From the NCBI RefSeq assembly GCF_024700885.2, contig NZ_CP117016.1: 64,000 nucleotides of DNA. One strand, written 5' to 3'. The notes under the pieces were generated by a model that saw nothing but the letters and a program-made list of their open reading frames with translations, had not been told where the DNA came from and made no database searches. How positions within the stretch are numbered: position 1 is the stretch's first letter; every line of letters begins with the position of its first letter. Source of the stretch: Escherichia coli (GTDB lineage Bacteria; Pseudomonadota; Gammaproteobacteria; Enterobacterales; Enterobacteriaceae). Shown piece after piece: positions 17,774-44,479 of this stretch. The position numbers and the translations under genes were made by a program.

Positions 17774-18070
17774 TCATTCTTCCCCAAGAGCTTTTCTGAT
17801 TGCTGCAAGACCTTTATTAACAGCTCCATACCATTCTGGATATGTTGTCGTTGTTCTATTTTTGGTTTGCTTAAGTAATAACTGAAGTGCTTCGAGAAGG
17901 TCAGGTGCTGCCGCTATTAGATTGGCATCTTCAATGCATTGAACTTCCTCACAGATTGCAATATACGAACGCCAGCCTGCGCCATTTTCAAGTGAGTCTG
18001 CCTGGATGATTTTAATCTCATCGCCATCCATCATTATTTCCCACTTACCTTCAGTACCTTTAAATTCCAT
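17774..18070 (-). CDS. Hypothetical early protein (98 aa)
   Basis: ORF between N and the cIII-like gene. Confidence 0.5.
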   Translation of the reverse strand: MEFKGTEGKWEIMMDGDEIKIIQADSLENGAGWRSYIAICEEVQCIEDANLIAAAPDLLEALQLLLKQTKNRTTTTYPEWYGAVNKGLAAIRKALGEE

Positions 18071-18109
18071 GTTAGCCTCTGTTGTTTATGCCAAAAATGA
18101 AGGCCACCA

Positions 18110-18361
18110 TCAGGCAGCCTTGTTGTAAATGTTGCAGGTATCAAGTAAGTAATTAGATGGAGCGCCATAAATTATGAATTCATCGTTTGTCGGGTCCATC
18201 TCCATCTCTTGGCCTATTGCCATTCTTGCGTCAGTGTCATCAGCGGCGAAACATAAAACAGCCCACGCACCCATTGTTTTAAAAAGAACTGCAATTGGCT
18301 GTGGTTTTACTGAATTTGCGTTAGCGCGAAAATCACAAATCGCACTTTCATGAAATTCCAT
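18110..18361 (-). CDS. Hypothetical early protein (83 aa), Ral position
   Basis: ORF immediately downstream of N in the leftward operon. Confidence 0.5.
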   Translation of the reverse strand: MEFHESAICDFRANANSVKPQPIAVLFKTMGAWAVLCFAADDTDARMAIGQEMEMDPTNDEFIIYGAPSNYLLDTCNIYNKAA

Positions 18362-18369
18362 ATCTCACC

Positions 18370-18696
18370 TCAAATAAGTGGTTTGCTGCCTAATTTCATT
18401 TTCTGGCGACCAACACAAGTCACGCCCATTTCACTGCGTGGCTTGCTGTACCATGTGCGCTGATTCTTGCGCTCAATACGTTGCAGGTTGCTTTCAATCT
18501 GTTCGTGGTATTCAGCCAGCGCCGTAAGGTCTATCGGATTCAGTGCGCTTTCTACTCGTGATTTCGGTTTGCGATTCAGCGAGAGAATAGGGCGGCTAAC
18601 TGGTTTTGCGCTTACCCCAACCAACAGGGGATTTGCTGCTTTCCATTGAGCCTGTTTCTCTGCGCGACGTTCGCGGCGGCGTGTTTGTGCATCCAT
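18370..18696 (-). CDS. N: Antitermination protein N
   Basis: Internal start of track ORF: MDAQTRRRERRAEKQAQWKAANPLLVGVSAKPV..., the arginine-rich motif of lambda/434 N. Confidence 0.9.
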   Translation of the reverse strand: MDAQTRRRERRAEKQAQWKAANPLLVGVSAKPVSRPILSLNRKPKSRVESALNPIDLTALAEYHEQIESNLQRIERKNQRTWYSKPRSEMGVTCVGRQKMKLGSKPLI

Positions 18697-18858
18697 CTGG
18701 ATTCTCCTGTCAGTTAGCTTTGGTGGTGTGGTAGGTGGGAGACCCATTTCGACCTGCTTCGGCCGACTTCAATTCGGCAATAGTTCCGCAGGCCTCGCCG
18801 CTTTACGTGCGACATATTCCCATCCATGAACCCTTCACCACACCCCAAAGCCTTCTGC

Positions 18859-18889
18859 TTTGAATGCTGCCCTTCTTCAGGGCTAAATT
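18859..18889 (-). promoter_or_regulatory. nutL: nutL (boxB hairpin GCCCTGAAGAAGGGC on the transcribed strand, plus boxA-like element)
   Basis: Plus strand shows GCCCTTCTTCAGGGC at 18859..18873, upstream of N in the leftward transcript. Confidence 0.6.
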
Positions 18890-18944
18890 TTTAAGAGCCT
18901 CACCTTCAATGGTGGTTAGTGCGTCCTGCTGATGGCTTAAAATT

Positions 18945-19012
18945 ACAAGAAAGATTGTATGTTGTAAACAAGAAATATTGTAAAAATGGGCGTGAAAAAC
19001 AAACTCCATTGT
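18945..19012. promoter_or_regulatory. OL operator cluster / pL region (three 434-type ACAA-N6-TTGT sites)
   Basis: ACAAGAAAGATTGT (18945..18958), ACAAGAAATATTGT (18968..18981), ACAAACTCCATTGT (18999..19012). Confidence 0.6.
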
Positions 19013-19062
19013 TTTTAAACGGAAAATAGTTTGTTTTTTGGTTGTCGAAATTGAGGTGAGGA

Positions 19063-20415
<1,353 letters not shown>

Positions 20416-20424
20416 GACATTCCC

Positions 20425-20456
20425 GCTCTTACACATCCCAGCCCTGAAAAAGGGCA
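20425..20456 (+). promoter_or_regulatory. nutR: nutR (boxA CGCTCTTA, boxB GCCCTGAAAAAGGGC)
   Basis: boxA at 20425..20432 and boxB hairpin at 20442..20456 downstream of cro. Confidence 0.7.
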
Positions 20457-20534
20457 TCAAATTAAACCACACCTATGGTGTATGCATTTATTTGCATACA
20501 TTCAATCAATTGTTATCTAAGGAAATACTTACAT

Positions 20535-20813
20535 ATGCAACTTACAAGTACTCGCAAGAAAGCGAATGCAATTACAAGCAACATCCTGAATCGAATTGCT
20601 GTACGTGGTCAGCGAAAGGTTGCCGACGCGTTAGGGGTTAATGAATCGCAAATTTCGCGATGGAAAGACAGCTTCATCCCCAAAATGGGAATGCTTCTGG
20701 CTGTTCTTGAATGGGGTGTTGAAGACGAGGAGTTGGCGGAACTGGCTAAGAAAGTAGCCAGAATGCTGACAAAAGAAAAAGCCCCGAAGAACGGCGAATT
20801 CTTCGAGGCCTAA
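20535..20813 (+). CDS. cII: cII-like transcriptional activator
   Basis: Internal start MQLTSTRKKANAITSNILNRIAVRGQRKVADALGVNESQISRWKDSFIPKMGMLLAVLEWGV, similar to lambda CII (SQISRWK...LLAVLEWGV). Confidence 0.8.
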   Translation: MQLTSTRKKANAITSNILNRIAVRGQRKVADALGVNESQISRWKDSFIPKMGMLLAVLEWGVEDEELAELAKKVARMLTKEKAPKNGEFFEA

Positions 20814-20847
20814 TGTAGAAAGACTGGATCAATCCACGGGAGTAATT

Positions 20848-21009
20848 ATGACAAAACGTCGTAAGAAATACCAGGAAAAAGAAGAGATTCGACACCCTGA
20901 TTCACCTGAGGGATTAGTGGTAGCCGCAGCAAATAACAGGGCGTTCGCAGAGCGCCTTGTTGGTGTTTACAGACTAGCCAAAGCAGGAGTGAAACATGGG
21001 CGTCGTTAA
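20848..21009 (+). CDS. Small basic hypothetical protein (53 aa), not in ORF track
   Basis: ATG at 20848 preceded by GGGAG; MTKRRKKYQEKEEIRHPDSPEGLVVAAANNRAFAERLVGVYRLAKAGVKHGRR; overlaps start of the O-like gene. Confidence 0.3.
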   Translation: MTKRRKKYQEKEEIRHPDSPEGLVVAAANNRAFAERLVGVYRLAKAGVKHGRR

Positions 21010-21886
21010 GTTAGCTGATTACAGGCATAACCCTGTACAACATCAGGAGGCATCCAGTATGGGGTATGTCTCTATACACCGCCAGTTTATGGACAGCAGG
21101 CTCTATAAGGACTCTCAGGCAGTACATCTTTGGCTTCACTTAATCCTCAAGGCTAATCACGAATCTACTGTCGTCAATACGGTTATCGGGCCGATAACTG
21201 TTGATCGCGGTCAGATGATAACTGGACGCCCGTCGCTGGTCAGAGAAACATTCATCCCCGACAACAAAGTTAGGAGCTTATTGCGGACTTTTGAGTCGAA
21301 AGGGATGCTTAATATTTGCTCGATGGGGAAGAAATTTAGCCTGTTTACAATCGTTAAATATGACGATTTTCAGGCAAAAAATTGTCCAACGGTTGTCCAA
21401 CGGTTGTCCAACGCAAACACCAGTAATGGCGCGGCTCTCAGCGGAGATTGTCCAACGGTTGTCCAACGGTTGTCCATAAACAATAATATAAATAATATCT
21501 CTAATACTGACGTATTAGAGAGTACCGCAGCAGACAAAAAGTCTGACAAGAAAAAACCTTCCGTCAGCTGTCAGGATGTTGTCGATGCTTACCACGAAAT
21601 CCTTCCTGAAGCGCCAAGAATCCGCGCACTGAATGACAAGCGTAAAAACCAGATCCGAACGTTCTGGCGCAAAGCCGGAGTGATAACCCGACAGCTTGAC
21701 GGGCATGGGTTCACGATGCAGGACTGGAGAAATTATTTGAGCTACGTAGGCGAAAATTGCCGATGGATGTTCGAAGAACGCCCAAACCATCAACGCGGAA
21801 CCGTCTGGCACAAAAAGGGATTTGATTTCCTGCTTAACGACAATACCTACCTGAAAGTTCGTGAGGGTGAACATGATGACCGATAA
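20996..21886 (+). CDS. Replication initiator (lambda O-like) with internal origin
   Basis: 296-aa ORF preceding the DnaB-like helicase; contains iteron array and AT-rich tract within the coding sequence, as for ori-lambda in O. Start codon uncertain. Confidence 0.65.
   Translation: MGVVKLADYRHNPVQHQEASSMGYVSIHRQFMDSRLYKDSQAVHLWLHLILKANHESTVVNTVIGPITVDRGQMITGRPSLVRETFIPDNKVRSLLRTFESKGMLNICSMGKKFSLFTIVKYDDFQAKNCPTVVQRLSNANTSNGAALSGDCPTVVQRLSINNNINNISNTDVLESTAADKKSDKKKPSVSCQDVVDAYHEILPEAPRIRALNDKRKNQIRTFWRKAGVITRQLDGHGFTMQDWRNYLSYVGENCRWMFEERPNHQRGTVWHKKGFDFLLNDNTYLKVREGEHDDR
21382..21479. repeat. ori: Origin iterons: six direct repeats of TTGTCCAACGG in two triplets, followed by AT-rich tract
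   Basis: Repeats at 21382, 21393, 21404 and 21448, 21459, 21470; AT-rich segment 21477..21520. Confidence 0.8.
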
Positions 21887-23312
21887 TTTTTATGCGCCGC
21901 CCCATAGCATCGAGGCAGAGCAGGCGGTGATTGGTGGATTGCTTCTGGATGATGACAGCAGTGAGCGCGTCCAGAAAGTTCTGGCGATGCTGAAGCCCGA
22001 TTCATTTTACAGCCGACCACACAAAATCCTTTTCGAAGAAATAACCAGAATGCACCGGGAGCAAAAGCCAGTAGATGGCCTGACGCTTTTCGATGAACTG
22101 GAGCGTAAATCGTTAACGGTGTCTGTTGGCGGTTTTGCTTATATCGCTGAGATCGCAAAGAACACGCCAAGCGCAGCAAACATCGTTGCCTATGCAATGC
22201 AGGTTCGTGAAACCGCAATGGAACGCTACGCCATCAACCGCATGACTGAAGCGACGGAATTGCTCTATTCCCGCAACGGAATGACTGCAACGCAGAAGTA
22301 CGAAGCTATTCAGGCGATTTTCACGCAACTGACAGACCATGCAAAAACCGGATCGCGTCGCGGCCTTCGCTCATTTGGTGAGGTCATGGAAGACTGGGTT
22401 AGCGACCTTGAGAAGCGATCTGACCCGTCAGGCGAACAACGAGGAATGAGCACAGGGATCCCATCTCTGGACAGGATGCTGTCACCGAAAGGTCTGGTGA
22501 AAGGCTCTCTGTTCGTCATTGGCGCTCGCCCTAAGATGGGGAAAACGACGCTATACAGCCAGATGGCAATCAACTGCGCAGTGCATGAGAAAAAGCCAGC
22601 TCTGATGTTCAGCCTTGAAATGCCAGGTGACCAGATACTGGAAAAACTGGTAGGGCAGAAGTCTGGTGTTAACCCGAATATTTTTTACCTTCCGGCGACA
22701 AATGACGCTGATGACGGCTATCAGGGTGATTACGATGGTGACTTCAACAGGGCGATCGAAACAGCAAATCGCTTGAGTGAAATCGACCTGCTTTACATCG
22801 ACGACACGCCGGGATTATCTCTGGCTCAAATCGTCAGCGAAAGCCGTCGAATCAAGCGAGAAAAAGGATGTGTTGGCATGATTCTGGTCGATTACCTGAC
22901 ACTAATGACCGCTGAAAAGGCCGATCGCAACGACCTTGCTTACGGCATGATCACCAAAGGACTGAAGAACCTTGCCAAAGAGCTTGATTGCGTTGTTGTG
23001 CTTCTGACACAGCTTAACCGCGCACTGGAAAGCCGAACCAATAAACGCCCATTACCAAGTGACTCACGAGATACAGGGCAGATTGAACAGGATTGCGATT
23101 ATTGGGTGGGGATCCATCGTGAAGGTGCTTTTGATGACAGCGTTCCTCCTGGTGAAACCGAACTAATCCTTCGTCTCAATCGTCATGGCAATACCGGCAC
23201 GGTGTATTGCATTCAGGTAAATGGCGCTATTTATGACACAGACCAACAGTCTGCTGAAATGCGCCGACGTGAACGCGAGGAACCGCAGTCCAAGAAGAAA
23301 GGAGGATTCTGA
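21873..23312 (+). CDS. DnaB-like replicative helicase (P22 gene 12-like)
   Basis: N-terminal DnaB domain (SIEAEQAVIGGLLLD) and Walker A GARPKMGKT; start taken at ATG 21873. Confidence 0.85.
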   Translation: MMTDNFYAPPHSIEAEQAVIGGLLLDDDSSERVQKVLAMLKPDSFYSRPHKILFEEITRMHREQKPVDGLTLFDELERKSLTVSVGGFAYIAEIAKNTPSAANIVAYAMQVRETAMERYAINRMTEATELLYSRNGMTATQKYEAIQAIFTQLTDHAKTGSRRGLRSFGEVMEDWVSDLEKRSDPSGEQRGMSTGIPSLDRMLSPKGLVKGSLFVIGARPKMGKTTLYSQMAINCAVHEKKPALMFSLEMPGDQILEKLVGQKSGVNPNIFYLPATNDADDGYQGDYDGDFNRAIETANRLSEIDLLYIDDTPGLSLAQIVSESRRIKREKGCVGMILVDYLTLMTAEKADRNDLAYGMITKGLKNLAKELDCVVVLLTQLNRALESRTNKRPLPSDSRDTGQIEQDCDYWVGIHREGAFDDSVPPGETELILRLNRHGNTGTVYCIQVNGAIYDTDQQSAEMRRREREEPQSKKKGGF

Positions 23313-23387
23313 TGACCATCTACATCACTGAGCTAATAACAGGCCTGCTGGTAATCGCAGGCCTTTTTATTTGGGGGAGAGGGAGTC

Positions 23388-23828
23388 ATGAAAAAACTAA
23401 CCTTTGAAATTCGATCTCCAGCACATCAGCAAAACGCTATTCACGCAGTACAGCAAATTCTTCCAGACCCAACCAAACCAATCGTAGTAACCATTCAGGA
23501 ACGCAACCGCAGCTTAGACCAAAACCGAAAGCTTTGGGCCTGCTTAGGTGACGTCTCTCGTCAGGTTGAATGGCATGGTCGCTGGCTGGATGCAGAAAGC
23601 TGGAAGTGTGTGTTTACCGCAGCATTAAAGCAGCAGGATGTTGTTCCTAACCTTGCCGGGAATGGCTTTGTGGTAATAGGCCAGTCAACCAGCAGGATGC
23701 GTGTAAGCGAATTTGCGGAGCTATTAGAGCTTATACAGGCATTCGGTACAGAGCGTGGCGTTAAGTGGTCAGACGAAGCGCGACTGGCTCTCGAATGGAA
23801 AGCGCGATGGGGAGACAGGGCGGCATGA
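23388..23828 (+). CDS. ninB: NinB (Orf family recombination mediator)
   Basis: 146-aa [62 protein letters not shown]..., recognised as lambda NinB. Confidence 0.9.
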
Positions 23829-24001
23829 GACGACAGCGACGAAGTATCACCGACATAATCTGCGAAAACTGCAAATACCTTCCAACGAAACGCTCCAGAA
23901 ATAAACGCAAGCCAATCCCAAAAGAATCTGACGTAAAAACCTTCAATTACACAGCTCACCTGTGGGATATCCGGTGGCTAAGAAATCGTGCGAGGAAATG
24001 A
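23825..24001 (+). CDS. ninD: NinD-like small zinc-finger protein
   Basis: Internal start [34 protein letters not shown]...; lambda nin-region small protein. Confidence 0.7.
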
Positions 24002-24381
24002 CAATGGATTATTCACAGTTAAGTGATTTTGAAATTAACAAGCGAGTGGCAATCGCAAATGGACTTTTGGTTCAGGGCATTGATGATAGTAAAGCCACTG
24101 GAATGACTAGCAAATATCACGAACTCCGGCCGCACACTGTTTGGGTGAGTGATGGTAAAAACCCATGGGTGCAATATGCACCAACTCTTTGCTGGGAGGA
24201 TGCTGGACCTGTCATCTTGAAGAATCGCATCAGTCTTGTTTGGGATTGCGCTGAAGATGGCAGTTCTGAATGGTGGAATTCTGTTGATCAGTTCGATTCT
24301 TGCCGAGTTCAGTACCAGTCTAATCCCCTCCGCGCCGCCATGATTGTATTTCTCATGATGCAGGACGCCAATAATGCTTAG
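23998..24381 (+). CDS. nin-region hypothetical protein
   Basis: ORF starting [26 protein letters not shown]...; no recognised domain. Confidence 0.5.
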
Positions 24382-24559
24382 CCCATCCCAATCCCTTCAA
24401 TACCAGAAAGAAAGCGTCGAGCGGGCTTTAACGTGCGCTAACTGCGGTCAGAAGCTGCATGTGCTGGAAGTTCACGTGTGTGAGCGTTGTATATATGAAT
24501 GCTTAAATATGGTGGAACATAATGAGAAATATAAGCAACATAGACGAATTAAGAAATAA
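24374..24559 (+). CDS. ninF: NinF-like protein with 3' end displaced by an insertion
   Basis: N-terminal 35 aa ([37 protein letters not shown]) match lambda NinF as recalled; the remainder is unrelated, and the expected NinF C-terminus (CAELMSDPNSSMYEEEDDE) is encoded at 25030..25086 in another frame. Confidence 0.6.
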   Translation: MLSPSQSLQYQKESVERALTCANCGQKLHVLEVHVCERCIYECLNMVEHNEKYKQHRRIKK

Positions 24560-25031
24560 ATTATCATATGATGATGTTTTAGGTGTGCTTAGATGGAAAG
24601 TGTCTCCTTCTAATAATGTTAAGGTTGGCAGTGTTGCTGGTTACATTAGGAGTGATGGTTATAGGATGTTAACTATCGATGGTGTAATTACTTATGCTCA
24701 CCACGTTATATGGATGATAAATAATGGTGAGATTCCATTAGGGTATAAAATTGATCATATAAATGGAGTAAGGTCAGATAATAGGCTATCTAATCTTCGA
24801 TTGGTTACACACCAACAGAATGCACAGAACCAAAAGAGAAAAATAACCAATTCGTCAGGAGTGACTGGAGTATATTTCAATAAAGAGAGATGTAAGTGGA
24901 TTGCGAATATATGCGTAGATGGGCGCACCAAATATCTTGGAATATTTGCAAGCATCATTGACGCTATTGCAGAAAGGAAGAGGGCAGAAAAAGAACTGGG
25001 TTTTCATGAAAACCATGGCAGACCATAACTG
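24487..25031 (+). mobile_element. Inserted free-standing HNH endonuclease cassette inside ninF (approximate boundaries)
   Basis: AT-rich ~0.55-kb segment with its own RBS and ORF, flanked by the two halves of ninF. Confidence 0.5.
24522..25028 (+). CDS. HNH homing-type endonuclease
   Basis: 168-aa ORF with HNH motif (YKIDHINGVRSDNRLSNLRLVTHQQN) and AP2-like segment (GVTGVYFNKERCKWIANI). Confidence 0.8.
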   Translation: MRNISNIDELRNKLSYDDVLGVLRWKVSPSNNVKVGSVAGYIRSDGYRMLTIDGVITYAHHVIWMINNGEIPLGYKIDHINGVRSDNRLSNLRLVTHQQNAQNQKRKITNSSGVTGVYFNKERCKWIANICVDGRTKYLGIFASIIDAIAERKRAEKELGFHENHGRP

Positions 25032-25081
25032 CGCAGAACTGATGAGCGATCCGAATAGCTCAATGTACGAGGAAGAAGACG

Positions 25082-25351
25082 ATGAGTGATTTCTCTGAGC
25101 TTATTTCCTTCAAAAAAGACAGAGAAGAAATGCGGACTGAATCTGTCTATTACGTTCAACACCGGAATAAACGCTCTGTGCTTGATCAGGAGCTGGTTAT
25201 TACCGGAGACCTGGCATTCAGAACATATAAGGCCAGCATGGAAATGAAGGATTTCCCTAAATGTGGTTCTGAAAGAGAAGCCGCGTTAAAGCTGGCAGAG
25301 TGGATGCAGAGAATGGCTGCTGCAATTGAGAATTACTGGAGCGAACCATAA
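25082..25351 (+). CDS. nin-region hypothetical protein (89 aa)
   Basis: ORF with ATGA overlap to the ninF remnant stop. Confidence 0.5.
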   Translation: MSDFSELISFKKDREEMRTESVYYVQHRNKRSVLDQELVITGDLAFRTYKASMEMKDFPKCGSEREAALKLAEWMQRMAAAIENYWSEP

Positions 25352-27079: not shown

Positions 27080-27154
27080 GGGTCAGTCGTATAAAGGTCA
27101 TTACGGAAGGCTGTTAACCTTCTTATCGTGGTTCGAGTCCACGCTGTCCCGCCA
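27080..27154 (+). tRNA. tRNA-like gene, anticodon GTT (Asn-like)
   Basis: Hand-folded cloverleaf: acceptor GGGTCAG/CTGTCCC (one mismatch), anticodon stem GAAGG/CCTTC with loop CTGTTAA, T-arm CGTGG-TTCGAGT-CCACG, discriminator G and CCA. Confidence 0.5.
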
Positions 27155-27159
27155 AATAT

Positions 27160-27235
27160 GCTGGTTTAGCTCCAATGGTAGAGCAGTCGCCTTGTAAACG
27201 AATGGGTAGCGGTTCAAGTCCGTTAACCAGCACCA
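27160..27235 (+). tRNA. tRNA-like gene, anticodon TGT (Thr-like)
   Basis: Acceptor GCTGGTT/AACCAGC, canonical D-arm GCTC-CAATGGTA-GAGC, T-arm AGCGG-TTCAAGT-CCGTT, CCA end; anticodon stem has two mismatches. Confidence 0.5.
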
Positions 27236-28261: not shown

Positions 28262-28725
28262 GCAGAGTAACCGCGATTATCTCCGCTCTGGTTATCTGCA
28301 TCATCGCCTGTCTGTCATGGGCGGTTAATCATTACCGTGATAACGCCATCGCCTACAAAGAACAGCGAGATAAAAAAGTCAGTGAGCTGAAGCAGGCGAC
28401 CGCCACCATTACTGACATGCAGCAGCGCCAGCGTGCTGCTGATGCACTCGATGCTAAATACACGAAGGAGTTAGCTGATGCGAAAGCTGAAAATGATGCT
28501 CTTCGGCGCAAGCTTGATAATGGTGGTCGGGTGTTCGTCAAAGGAAAATGCCCTATGCCATCCTCAGCCGAAACCTCCAGCGCCTCCGGCATGGGCAATG
28601 ATGCCACCGTCGAACTCTCTCCAGTTGCTGGACGAAACGTTCTCGGTATCCGGGACGGAATCATCAGCGACCAAACAGCACTGAGAACGCTTCAGGAATA
28701 CATCAGGACGCAATGCCTTCGATGA
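28258..28725 (+). CDS. Rz: Spanin inner-membrane subunit Rz
   Basis: N-terminal TM segment plus coiled coil; lambda Rz-like. Confidence 0.9.
28478..28684 (+). CDS. Rz1: Spanin outer-membrane lipoprotein Rz1 (embedded in Rz, +1 frame)
   Basis: [21 protein letters not shown]... lipobox followed by a proline-rich segment, nested in Rz. Confidence 0.7.
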
Positions 28726-42371: not shown

Positions 42372-44479
42372 GTTTACCCGAAGGATTTGTTCTCGATAAT
42401 CAGCCTGATAACTCACAGCTTCCTGATGGTTTTGTGCTTGATTCCCAACCAGAGCAGCAGCAATCACCTTTGGTTTCACCAGAGGAAAATTCCAGACAGG
42501 AAAATGTTGTTAATAATGCTAACGGCTTCGACCGTTTTATGTATGGCGTTCTCAGTGGATTGATGGATGTTGGTAAAGGTGTTGGTCTATTTCAGGATAT
42601 GACACCAGAAGAGCAAGCCGCAATTCAGTCTCTACAGCAGAAGTTAGCGGCAAAACCATCAACCGCACAAGATGTTGGTGAGTTCGTTGGACAAGCAGCA
42701 CCATTTGTTAGTGGTGGTGGGATTATTTCTCAGGTTCCGAAAGGGGCGGCAAGGCTGGCTGCCGCCGCAGGGCTTGGTGCTGGAGAAGGGGCTATTGTAG
42801 CCAATGGAACAAATAGCGATGTTGCTTCTGGAGCTGCTATTGGCGCTGTGGCTGGCCCTGTAGCAGAGATTGTTGGTCCAGCGCTTGGGAAGATTGCAGG
42901 AAAAATTAAAAATAGTGCCGGAGATATTTATCGCTCATCCGTAGGGATGGGTAGTAAATCATCTAAAGCAACGTTAAAGAAAGCTGCTGGCGCAATGGAC
43001 AATAAATTTATCGGCGGGCAACGAGCTATTCAAGATTTCGCCGATGAAGTTAATCCTGATTTTAACGCGATAAATGCTATTCGTGAGCTAGAACTGGAAA
43101 ATTATGCCACTCCAGGCATGATCTCTAATAATCCTGCTGTCAGGGCTCTTGATAATGCAGTGGCAAGTCTCCCTGGAACAGAGATTAGTGAGGCGCATAA
43201 GCGTTTTATTACTGAATTAGGAAGAAAAGCTGATGAAATGATAACTTCATTTGGGGGAAGCCTTGATAAGCAACTGGTTTCTGACAGGCTTGCAGATAAT
43301 TTTGATAAAACCATTTCATCATTACAAAATCAGTCAGATAACATCTACAACAAAATTGCCGAAAAGGTTCCTGTAAGAGACCGGATTGAGGCAACTAATA
43401 CATTGAATTTTTTAGAGGATTTTGCTGATGATATAGGTGGAATTGATGAATTATCTCCAATAATGAAGCGGACATTGAACCGACTTGATCCAAACACCTT
43501 GCCAACGTATGGGCGTTTAGATCTCGCTAGAAAGCAGGTTGGACAAGCTATTGGCAAAGGCTCTGGTCCATTCAAGGATGAAGAAACAGGTGTTCTTAAA
43601 AAGTTATATGCGGCTATAACAGATGACCAACAGGCTGTCGCAGAAAAATATGGCGCAGGGGAGTTATGGACGCTTGGTAAGGAGTTGGTAAAAACACGAA
43701 AATCCATTGAAGATGATGCCGTAACCGTTTTGGGTAGAAAACTTCAGCAATCAGCAATTCCAAAAGTTGAAAGTGCCGTTGTTAATATGGCAAAAGGAAA
43801 CGGTGGTGACTTTAGGCAATTAATGAAGTCAATTCCAAAGGATATGCGGCAGGAAGTTGCGCTCACCTCAATGAATAAAGCATTTACCAGCTATGCTAAA
43901 TCACCAGGTCAGCAATTAGGGGTTGATGGATTTGTAAAATGGTATAACGGAATGTCACGCAATGGGGCCAATATGAAGGCTCTCCGTGATGCTATTGGCA
44001 CAGATGCATCAAAGCGCCTTGATACGATTTATCAAGCAGCCAAAGCTATGAATAGACTCAATACTGGTAAGCAGTATGCTAGCAGCCTTGTGGATCAGCA
44101 AGTTAATAACTTCCTGAAAGAAAAGGGTAGTCTCGCAAAAATTTATGGAATAGCCTCAAAAGCTGCTGCGGCGGAAGGTATTACAAGCTTATCTGGTCTT
44201 CCTGGTGTAGGTGCAACAGGGGTGATAACGTCAGCATTGATGTCAGGGAAAACAAGCAGGATAAAGGCTGCTGATGCTCTACTGTCTTCTCCTGAGTTTA
44301 AATCAATGCTATTTCGCCTGCAAAACGCACCAGTAGACAGAGCAGAAGTGAGACGCGTAATAGAAAGGAAACTGATGCAATCTGGGGCATTTAAGAGATG
44401 GGAGAAAACCTTATCAACAGATGAAGCAAAAACCATTGCCCGCACGGGGATTATTACATGGCTCGCTAGTGACAGTTAG
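42356..44479 (+). CDS. Ejection protein (P22 gp16-like), enlarged
   Basis: 707-aa ORF at the end of the rightward morphogenesis operon. Confidence 0.6.

Follow-up and report, generated by a model that had tools for sequence, protein, structure and literature searches.

Introduction

A presumed replication origin inside the initiator gene is already on record for the phages Sf6, HK620 and L. In phage L, gene 18 carries six imprecise 11-bp repeats, TGTCCAACGGA, which have been described as the "likely" origin, and the gene product shares 25% identity with P22 gp18 and 15% with lambda O (bioRxiv 10.1101/2020.10.05.325894). The GenBank record of Sf6 holds a rep_origin feature at 28385-28480, annotated as [quoted passage not shown]. 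We found no binding, unwinding or origin-function assay for this 11-bp-iteron type in the openly readable literature. The initiator gp38 of phage SPP1 binds the direct repeats of oriL, which lie inside gene 38 beside an AT-rich unwinding element, and this system has been reconstituted in vitro; gp38 works with the phage DnaB-type helicase gp40 and also binds a second site, oriR, which has been proposed to stall forks (PMC6316719). A further relative, the replication module of the HK022/VT2-Sakai type, is known as the replication unit "Eru3" in the Stx-phage literature, which makes no mention of iterons (PMC8044961).

Here, we describe the corresponding element in a 64,000-nucleotide stretch of the Escherichia coli chromosome (hereafter the window), which holds a P22-like (Lederbergvirus) prophage beside ybhC. 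We consider it roughly 85% probable that this element is the theta-replication origin of the prophage, which is of the HK620/Sf6 type, and that it works by the mechanism proposed below, for which lambda O/ori-lambda and SPP1 gp38/oriL serve as models.

Results

The element belongs to an annotated type of putative phage origin

The initiator gene in the window is orthologous to those encoding Sf6 gp43 and L gp18 and is followed by a gene for a DnaB-type helicase (Table 1). It is 98-99% identical to its counterparts in the phages Huey, mEpX2, IME10, HK106, HK633, HK75 and Sf6 (gene 43), with a nucleotide identity to Sf6 of 98.3% over the whole gene; for gp18 of the Salmonella phages ST160, SE1 and ST64T, the identity is 85%. 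The rep_origin feature of Sf6 corresponds to positions 21381-21476 of the window. The element is the already known putative origin of phages Sf6, HK620 and L; point differences at outer iteron positions and a different immunity region are all that set the window apart from origins of this type. Its gene is labeled by PGAP only as "DNA replication protein" with no origin marked, which makes the element useful for annotation.

A 301-bp query spanning the origin region matched E. coli MLI114 at 100%, and at least 80% of this region was present in about 140 of 5426 complete E. coli genomes.

Table 1 Features of the initiator-helicase region, in window coordinates
Feature	Position	Strand	Description
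Initiator gene	20996..21886	+	ORF, 296 aa; PHROG 345 "replication initiation O-like" at 4e-84
Iteron triplet 1	21382..21414	+	TTGTCCAACGG TTGTCCAACGG TTGTCCAACGC; period 11 bp
Spacer between triplets	21415..21447	+	33 bp; GC 0.58 (GC-richer); poorly conserved sequence
Iteron triplet 2	21448..21480	+	TTGTCCAACGG TTGTCCAACGG TTGTCCAtaaa
AT-rich tract, presumed DNA unwinding element (includes the palindrome)	21476..21521	.	9 G/C in 46 nt
Perfect inverted repeat	21498..21521	.	TCTCTAATAC-tgac-GTATTAGAGA; 10-bp arms (21498-21507, 21512-21521), 4-nt loop
Phage DnaB-family replicative helicase gene	21876..23312	+	TIGR03600 phage_DnaB, 3e-174; start per Sf6 annotation

Iterons are arranged in two triplets of 11-bp units

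The array lies within the initiator gene and consists of two groups of three imprecise 11-bp repeats, TGTCCAACGG(A); the arrays of Sf6 and ST160 are the same. Four of the units are exact copies, one carries a single mismatch, and the last is a half copy, in which the first seven bases are kept and the remainder merges into the AT-rich tract. An initial annotation of this DNA had spoken of six direct copies in two triplets; the two triplets stand, but the count of six full copies does not. Tandem Repeats Finder reported two period-11 arrays with matches of 100%, and a triplet together with its spacer forms a repeat module with a period of 66 bp. All four occurrences of the exact 11-mer in the window fall within the array, against a mean chance expectation of 0.01; none of 100 dinucleotide-preserving shuffles contained four.

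Outside the array, no second iteron cluster comparable to SPP1 oriR was found in the 64-kb window. The iteron core TGTCCAAC recurs as isolated 8-mers at 42686-42693 and 43538-43545 (- strand), where chance alone expects two, and matches to the iteron allowing up to two mismatches stayed at chance level throughout.

Two further candidate features of the iterons were rejected. Promoter-like matches within them are weak (9/12 positions), and their regional total lies within chance. The GTTG..CAAC half-palindromes, which hint at lambda-like dimer binding, are absent from the iterons of HK022, of the Klebsiella phage and of CobraSix, and dyad symmetry was not retained as a feature of the family.

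The presumed origin segment is constrained at the DNA level

Both triplets code for the peptide CPTVVQRLS (aa 130-138 and aa 152-160), as had been noted initially for PTVVQRLS. This duplication, the predicted disorder of the segment and the gain or loss of whole 22-codon units would suit a reading of the repeats as a duplicated peptide in a low-complexity linker, with no role in cis. Within a triplet, however, the DNA repeats three times and the peptide does not: 11 is not a multiple of 3, and each of the three units is read in a different frame, so the repetition is a feature of the DNA rather than of the peptide. The initial description of the repeats as in-frame accordingly applies to the 33-bp triplets and the 66-bp module, but not to the 11-bp units.

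Sequence comparisons at two distances point in the same direction. Relative to ST160, the origin segment shows 92% nucleotide and 81% amino acid identity, compared with 71% and 74%, respectively, for the N domain; nucleotide identity thus exceeds amino acid identity in the origin segment. For closer relatives, we used a scan of IMG/VR, which was meant to broaden diversity and returned only loci 98-100% identical to the window; the 80 near-identical loci yielded 70 distinct sequences, which served as a polymorphism set. Among them, the AT-rich tract with its palindrome (21481-21521) is invariant (0/41 variable sites), compared with 24/306 sites in the N domain and 36/327 in the C domain (8-11%), and the spacer is the most variable of all segments (10/33). 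The iteron core is nearly invariant in these sequences. Variation within the iterons is concentrated at iteron position 10, which accounts for 18 of 27 minor-allele counts regardless of codon position and with non-synonymous changes included. In the sequences compared, the origin is conserved more strongly as DNA than as the protein it encodes. Every homolog described below likewise retains an 11-bp period in its DNA while encoding another peptide. The peptide reading is contradicted by the sequence, and we regard it as hardly credible.

The number of modules varies between alleles. Initiators about 99% identical to that of the window occur with lengths of 274 aa (three iterons), 296 aa (six) and 318 aa (nine), i.e. 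with one, two or three triplets, and differ by exact 66-bp (22-codon) units. Single-triplet alleles are common, which implies either that six sites are not strictly required or that those prophages are impaired. Iteron-number variants are seen at positions 1887-2051 of locus L011, 1887-1919 of locus L012 and 21382-21480 of the window, all of which have intact replication modules and different immunity regions.

An AT-rich tract with a conserved palindrome follows the iterons

The AT-rich stretch that the initial annotation placed after the repeats was confirmed, with a GC content of 0.20 at 21480-21519, the lowest value of any 40-nt segment across 20800-22200. The palindrome inside it had been left out of that description. 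Folded as a single-stranded DNA hairpin, it reaches -7.9 kcal/mol (z = -3.8). Its pairing is kept in the Klebsiella phage through compensatory changes (TCTCTTCTAC/GTAGAAGAGA), and in CobraSix a different palindrome occupies the same place. The tract itself is near-identical in ST160 and HK022 despite their diverged N-terminal domains. The repeats, the AT-rich tract and the palindrome exist, and do so far beyond chance.

The palindrome also matches a terminator consensus on the minus strand. This match was judged incidental, with only 3/10 GC pairs in the stem and a T-rich tail that is the AT tract itself; a T run on the plus strand is absent. A search for RNA elements gave zero Rfam matches across 18000-24000 at E ≤ 0.1.

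Iterons follow the N domain and the C domain follows the helicase

Homologs at graded distances were recovered by tblastn against phage genomes, and their DNA was read for the same arrangement. Six enterobacterial homologs keep the layout of three 11-bp units, 33-bp spacer, three 11-bp units, AT tract and palindrome with a 4-nt loop. In a Pseudomonas phage, an AT-rich stretch comes after a tandem array of five 11-bp CCAGCA units. The iteron reads TGTCCAACG in the window, Sf6 and ST160; TTACCAGCA, i.e. (G/T)TACCAGCA and also written TTACCAGCAAA for the HK022 type, in HK022 and VT2-Sakai; GTGCCAACA in the Klebsiella phage; and TGTCCAGCC in the Enterobacter phage CobraSix. A CCA(A/G)C core is common to the iterons of all types compared.

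HK022 and the window have different iterons and N domains that are only 49% identical, while their C domains are 100% identical and the first 100 residues of their helicases 98% identical. In CobraSix and the phages of Klebsiella and Pseudomonas, divergence of the C domain goes along with divergence of the helicase. Across the homologs compared, iteron sequence co-varies with the N domain, as the distinct initiator specificity proposed in the initial annotation would have it, and the C domain co-varies with the helicase. As far as sequence can tell, inheritance thus proceeds in two units: the N domain travels with the iterons, and the AT-rich core with the C domain and the helicase. Such two-unit inheritance is what would be predicted for an initiator that reads the iterons by one end and recruits the helicase by the other.

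HK022 and VT2-Sakai (comparison loci L003 and L004) share with the window the AT tract, the palindrome, the C domain (99-100% at the amino acid level) and the helicase, and it is precisely at the AT-rich core, 21476-21521, that their sequence turns from divergent to near-identical. A mosaic joint at this place raises the question of whether the AT tract and palindrome serve mainly as a recombination joint, a "boundary sequence" of mosaic phages, with the repeats as a by-product and the true origin elsewhere. The distribution in E. coli would fit such a role, as 371 genomes match part of the 301-bp query and only 140 match at least 80% of it. A joint leaves unexplained, however, why phased 11-bp repeats should vary in concert with the N domain, and why the palindrome shows compensatory changes in distant homologs with no visible recent exchange. 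A shared origin core would moreover be a natural crossover point, so that the joint complements the origin reading rather than competing with it. We consider a joint without origin function very unlikely.

A different question is whether the array binds the initiator without initiating replication, for example in autoregulation, as a roadblock to pR transcription, in handcuffing-based copy control or, like SPP1 oriR, as a barrier to forks. Covariation between iterons and N domain shows specific pairing of protein and DNA only, not initiation. The second binding site of SPP1 gp38, as a proposed fork staller, offers a precedent, and the variable copy number of the module, from three to nine iterons, is a frequent trait of copy-control sites. 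Yet the adjoining AT tract and palindrome are strictly conserved among the close relatives, which is the signature of an unwinding element; order and in-gene position equal those of ori-lambda and of the annotated P22 origin; and the window lacks a second cluster, its two stray core 8-mers being the number expected by chance. A non-initiating binding cluster is thus unlikely in our view, and the origin reading is preferred. All computational tests agree with the initial proposal of a replication origin embedded in an O-like gene.

The initiator is predicted to have two domains

The N-terminal half of the initiator also matches PHROG families termed "DnaD-like helicase loader" (7e-23 to 2e-9). 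No Pfam or NCBIfam family scored above threshold, Pfam Phage_rep_O gave no match at E ≤ 0.01, and a PDB sequence search found no relative. An AlphaFold2 model, built from 21 sequences and with a pTM of 0.38, suggests a winged-helix-like N domain (~aa 25-126), a linker (aa 127-187) and a C domain (aa 188-296). The linker has a pLDDT below 50 and coincides with the DNA that holds the origin. Foldseek found weak resemblance of the N domain to the winged-helix DNA-binding domains of MarR, CodY, TubR and AspA (E ≥ ~0.03), and the winged-helix assignment is only indicative. Residues 76-104, a predicted helix-turn-helix, hardly vary among homologs with the TGTCCAACG iteron, even where overall identity falls to 74%, and differ in homologs of other iteron groups. 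From this pattern, we infer that these residues carry iteron specificity.

The start of the initiator gene is overlapped by a 53-aa ORF (20848-21009), which is conserved in position in Sf6 (gene 42, "HK97 53 protein homolog"), ST160, the Klebsiella phage and loci L011 and L012.

A phage helicase gene overlaps the initiator gene

The partner described initially as a DnaB-type phage helicase was borne out. The adjoining gene product scored 579.8 bits against TIGR03600 (cut-off 498.65) and also matched Pfam DnaB and DnaB_C. The two genes overlap by 11 nt, which leaves no space for an intervening loader gene; the longest ORF of the helicase begins further upstream, at GTG 21861.

Upstream of the initiator gene lie cII, a small conserved ORF, cro and a gene for a LexA-type repressor, and downstream of the pair follow NinB and the nin region. 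We made three side observations in this neighborhood. A strong terminator-like hairpin at 20779-20811 (- strand), also without an Rfam match, lies in the 3' end of cII, where lambda has its oop terminator. The ninF region (24374-25089), annotated in the MLI114 record as NinF (24374-24559) plus a partial NinF pseudogene (24982-25089), contains a 168-aa HNH endonuclease gene (24522-25028), which looks like a homing-endonuclease-type insertion. Two phage tRNA genes, Asn(gtt) and Thr(tgt), are located at 27080-27235, between the late antiterminator gene and the lysis genes.

Discussion

Proposed mechanism

In the mechanism that we propose for this origin, the winged-helix-like N-terminal domain of the initiator would bind the 11-bp iterons. 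With iterons one helical turn apart, the sites would lie on one face of the DNA, and six turns would separate the two groups. The nucleoprotein complex formed in this way would strain and then open the adjoining AT-rich tract, and the C domain would recruit the phage's own DnaB-type helicase; the two genes have no loader gene of the lambda P or G39P type between them. Primase and polymerase III of the host would take over once the helicase is loaded.

Head-to-tail 11-bp iterons with one-turn spacing and no conserved dyad symmetry may define a recognition geometry unlike that of lambda O dimers on dyad iterons. Winged-helix monomers could, for instance, line up along one face of the DNA, with the CCA(A/G)C core shared and specificity coming from the three bases 5' of it, and the alleles with three, six or nine iterons could tune origin strength or the incompatibility of co-resident prophages. 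We put this forward tentatively, as a possibility to which we give somewhat less than even odds.

Significance

As a discovery, the element carries little weight; it is a common and already annotated feature of P22-like and lambda-like coliphages. The comparison adds modestly to this picture: the 11-bp architecture with its CCA(A/G)C core is family-wide, a mosaic joint coincides with the AT-rich core, and the number of modules differs between alleles (one, two or three). The sister types, among them the module "Eru3" of VT2-Sakai, an Stx2 phage, amount to a compact natural experiment in initiator-iteron specificity. Because they share the AT-rich core, the C domain and the helicase but differ in N domain and iteron, specificity swaps should be straightforward.

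Comparison with known systems

The likeness to lambda noted in the initial annotation holds for the order of elements and the mid-gene position but fails for iteron geometry. In both systems, the origin or presumed origin occupies the mid-gene part that codes for the interdomain linker of a two-domain initiator, downstream of cII in the pR operon; after the iterons come an AT-rich tract and then a palindrome whose loop is 4 nt long (arms of 12 bp in lambda). Lambda has four iterons of about 19 bp with internal dyad symmetry and spacings of 20, 24 and 23 bp, unlike the six head-to-tail 11-bp units of the window with their one-turn spacing. The partners also differ: lambda P is a loader of host DnaB, whereas the window encodes a DnaB-family helicase of its own. 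Pairwise, the initiator has no similarity to lambda O (BLASTP E = 4.4) and does not match Pfam Phage_rep_O; the sole link is at profile level, where lambda O aa 16-169 matches PHROG 345 at 5e-17.

P22 shares with the window a gene 18 with an annotated internal origin that overlaps a gene for a DnaB-type helicase (gene 12), with no loader in between, and iterons and AT-rich tract occupy the same relative position of the initiator gene in lambda, P22 and the window. The C-terminal 116 aa of the initiator align with P22 gp18 at 25% identity (E = 2e-4), the N domains have no detectable pairwise similarity, and the helicase is 31% identical to gp12. P22 differs in its four lambda-like iterons of about 20 bp, which have dyad symmetry and spacings of 20, 24 and 23 bp and are followed by an AT-rich tract.

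[quoted passage not shown] This homology is remote and weak (27% identity to gp38 over aa 20-127, E = 1e-4 by tblastn). SPP1 differs in having a separate loader, gp39, and the second origin oriR, neither of which was seen in the window.

A counterpart with another iteron is found in HK022 and VT2-Sakai, where O and a DnaB-like P are encoded in an identical architecture with a near-identical AT tract and palindrome. Their iteron, TTACCAGCA(a/g)A, differs from the TGTCCAACGG of the window along with the N domain, and by sequence they are a sister specificity type.
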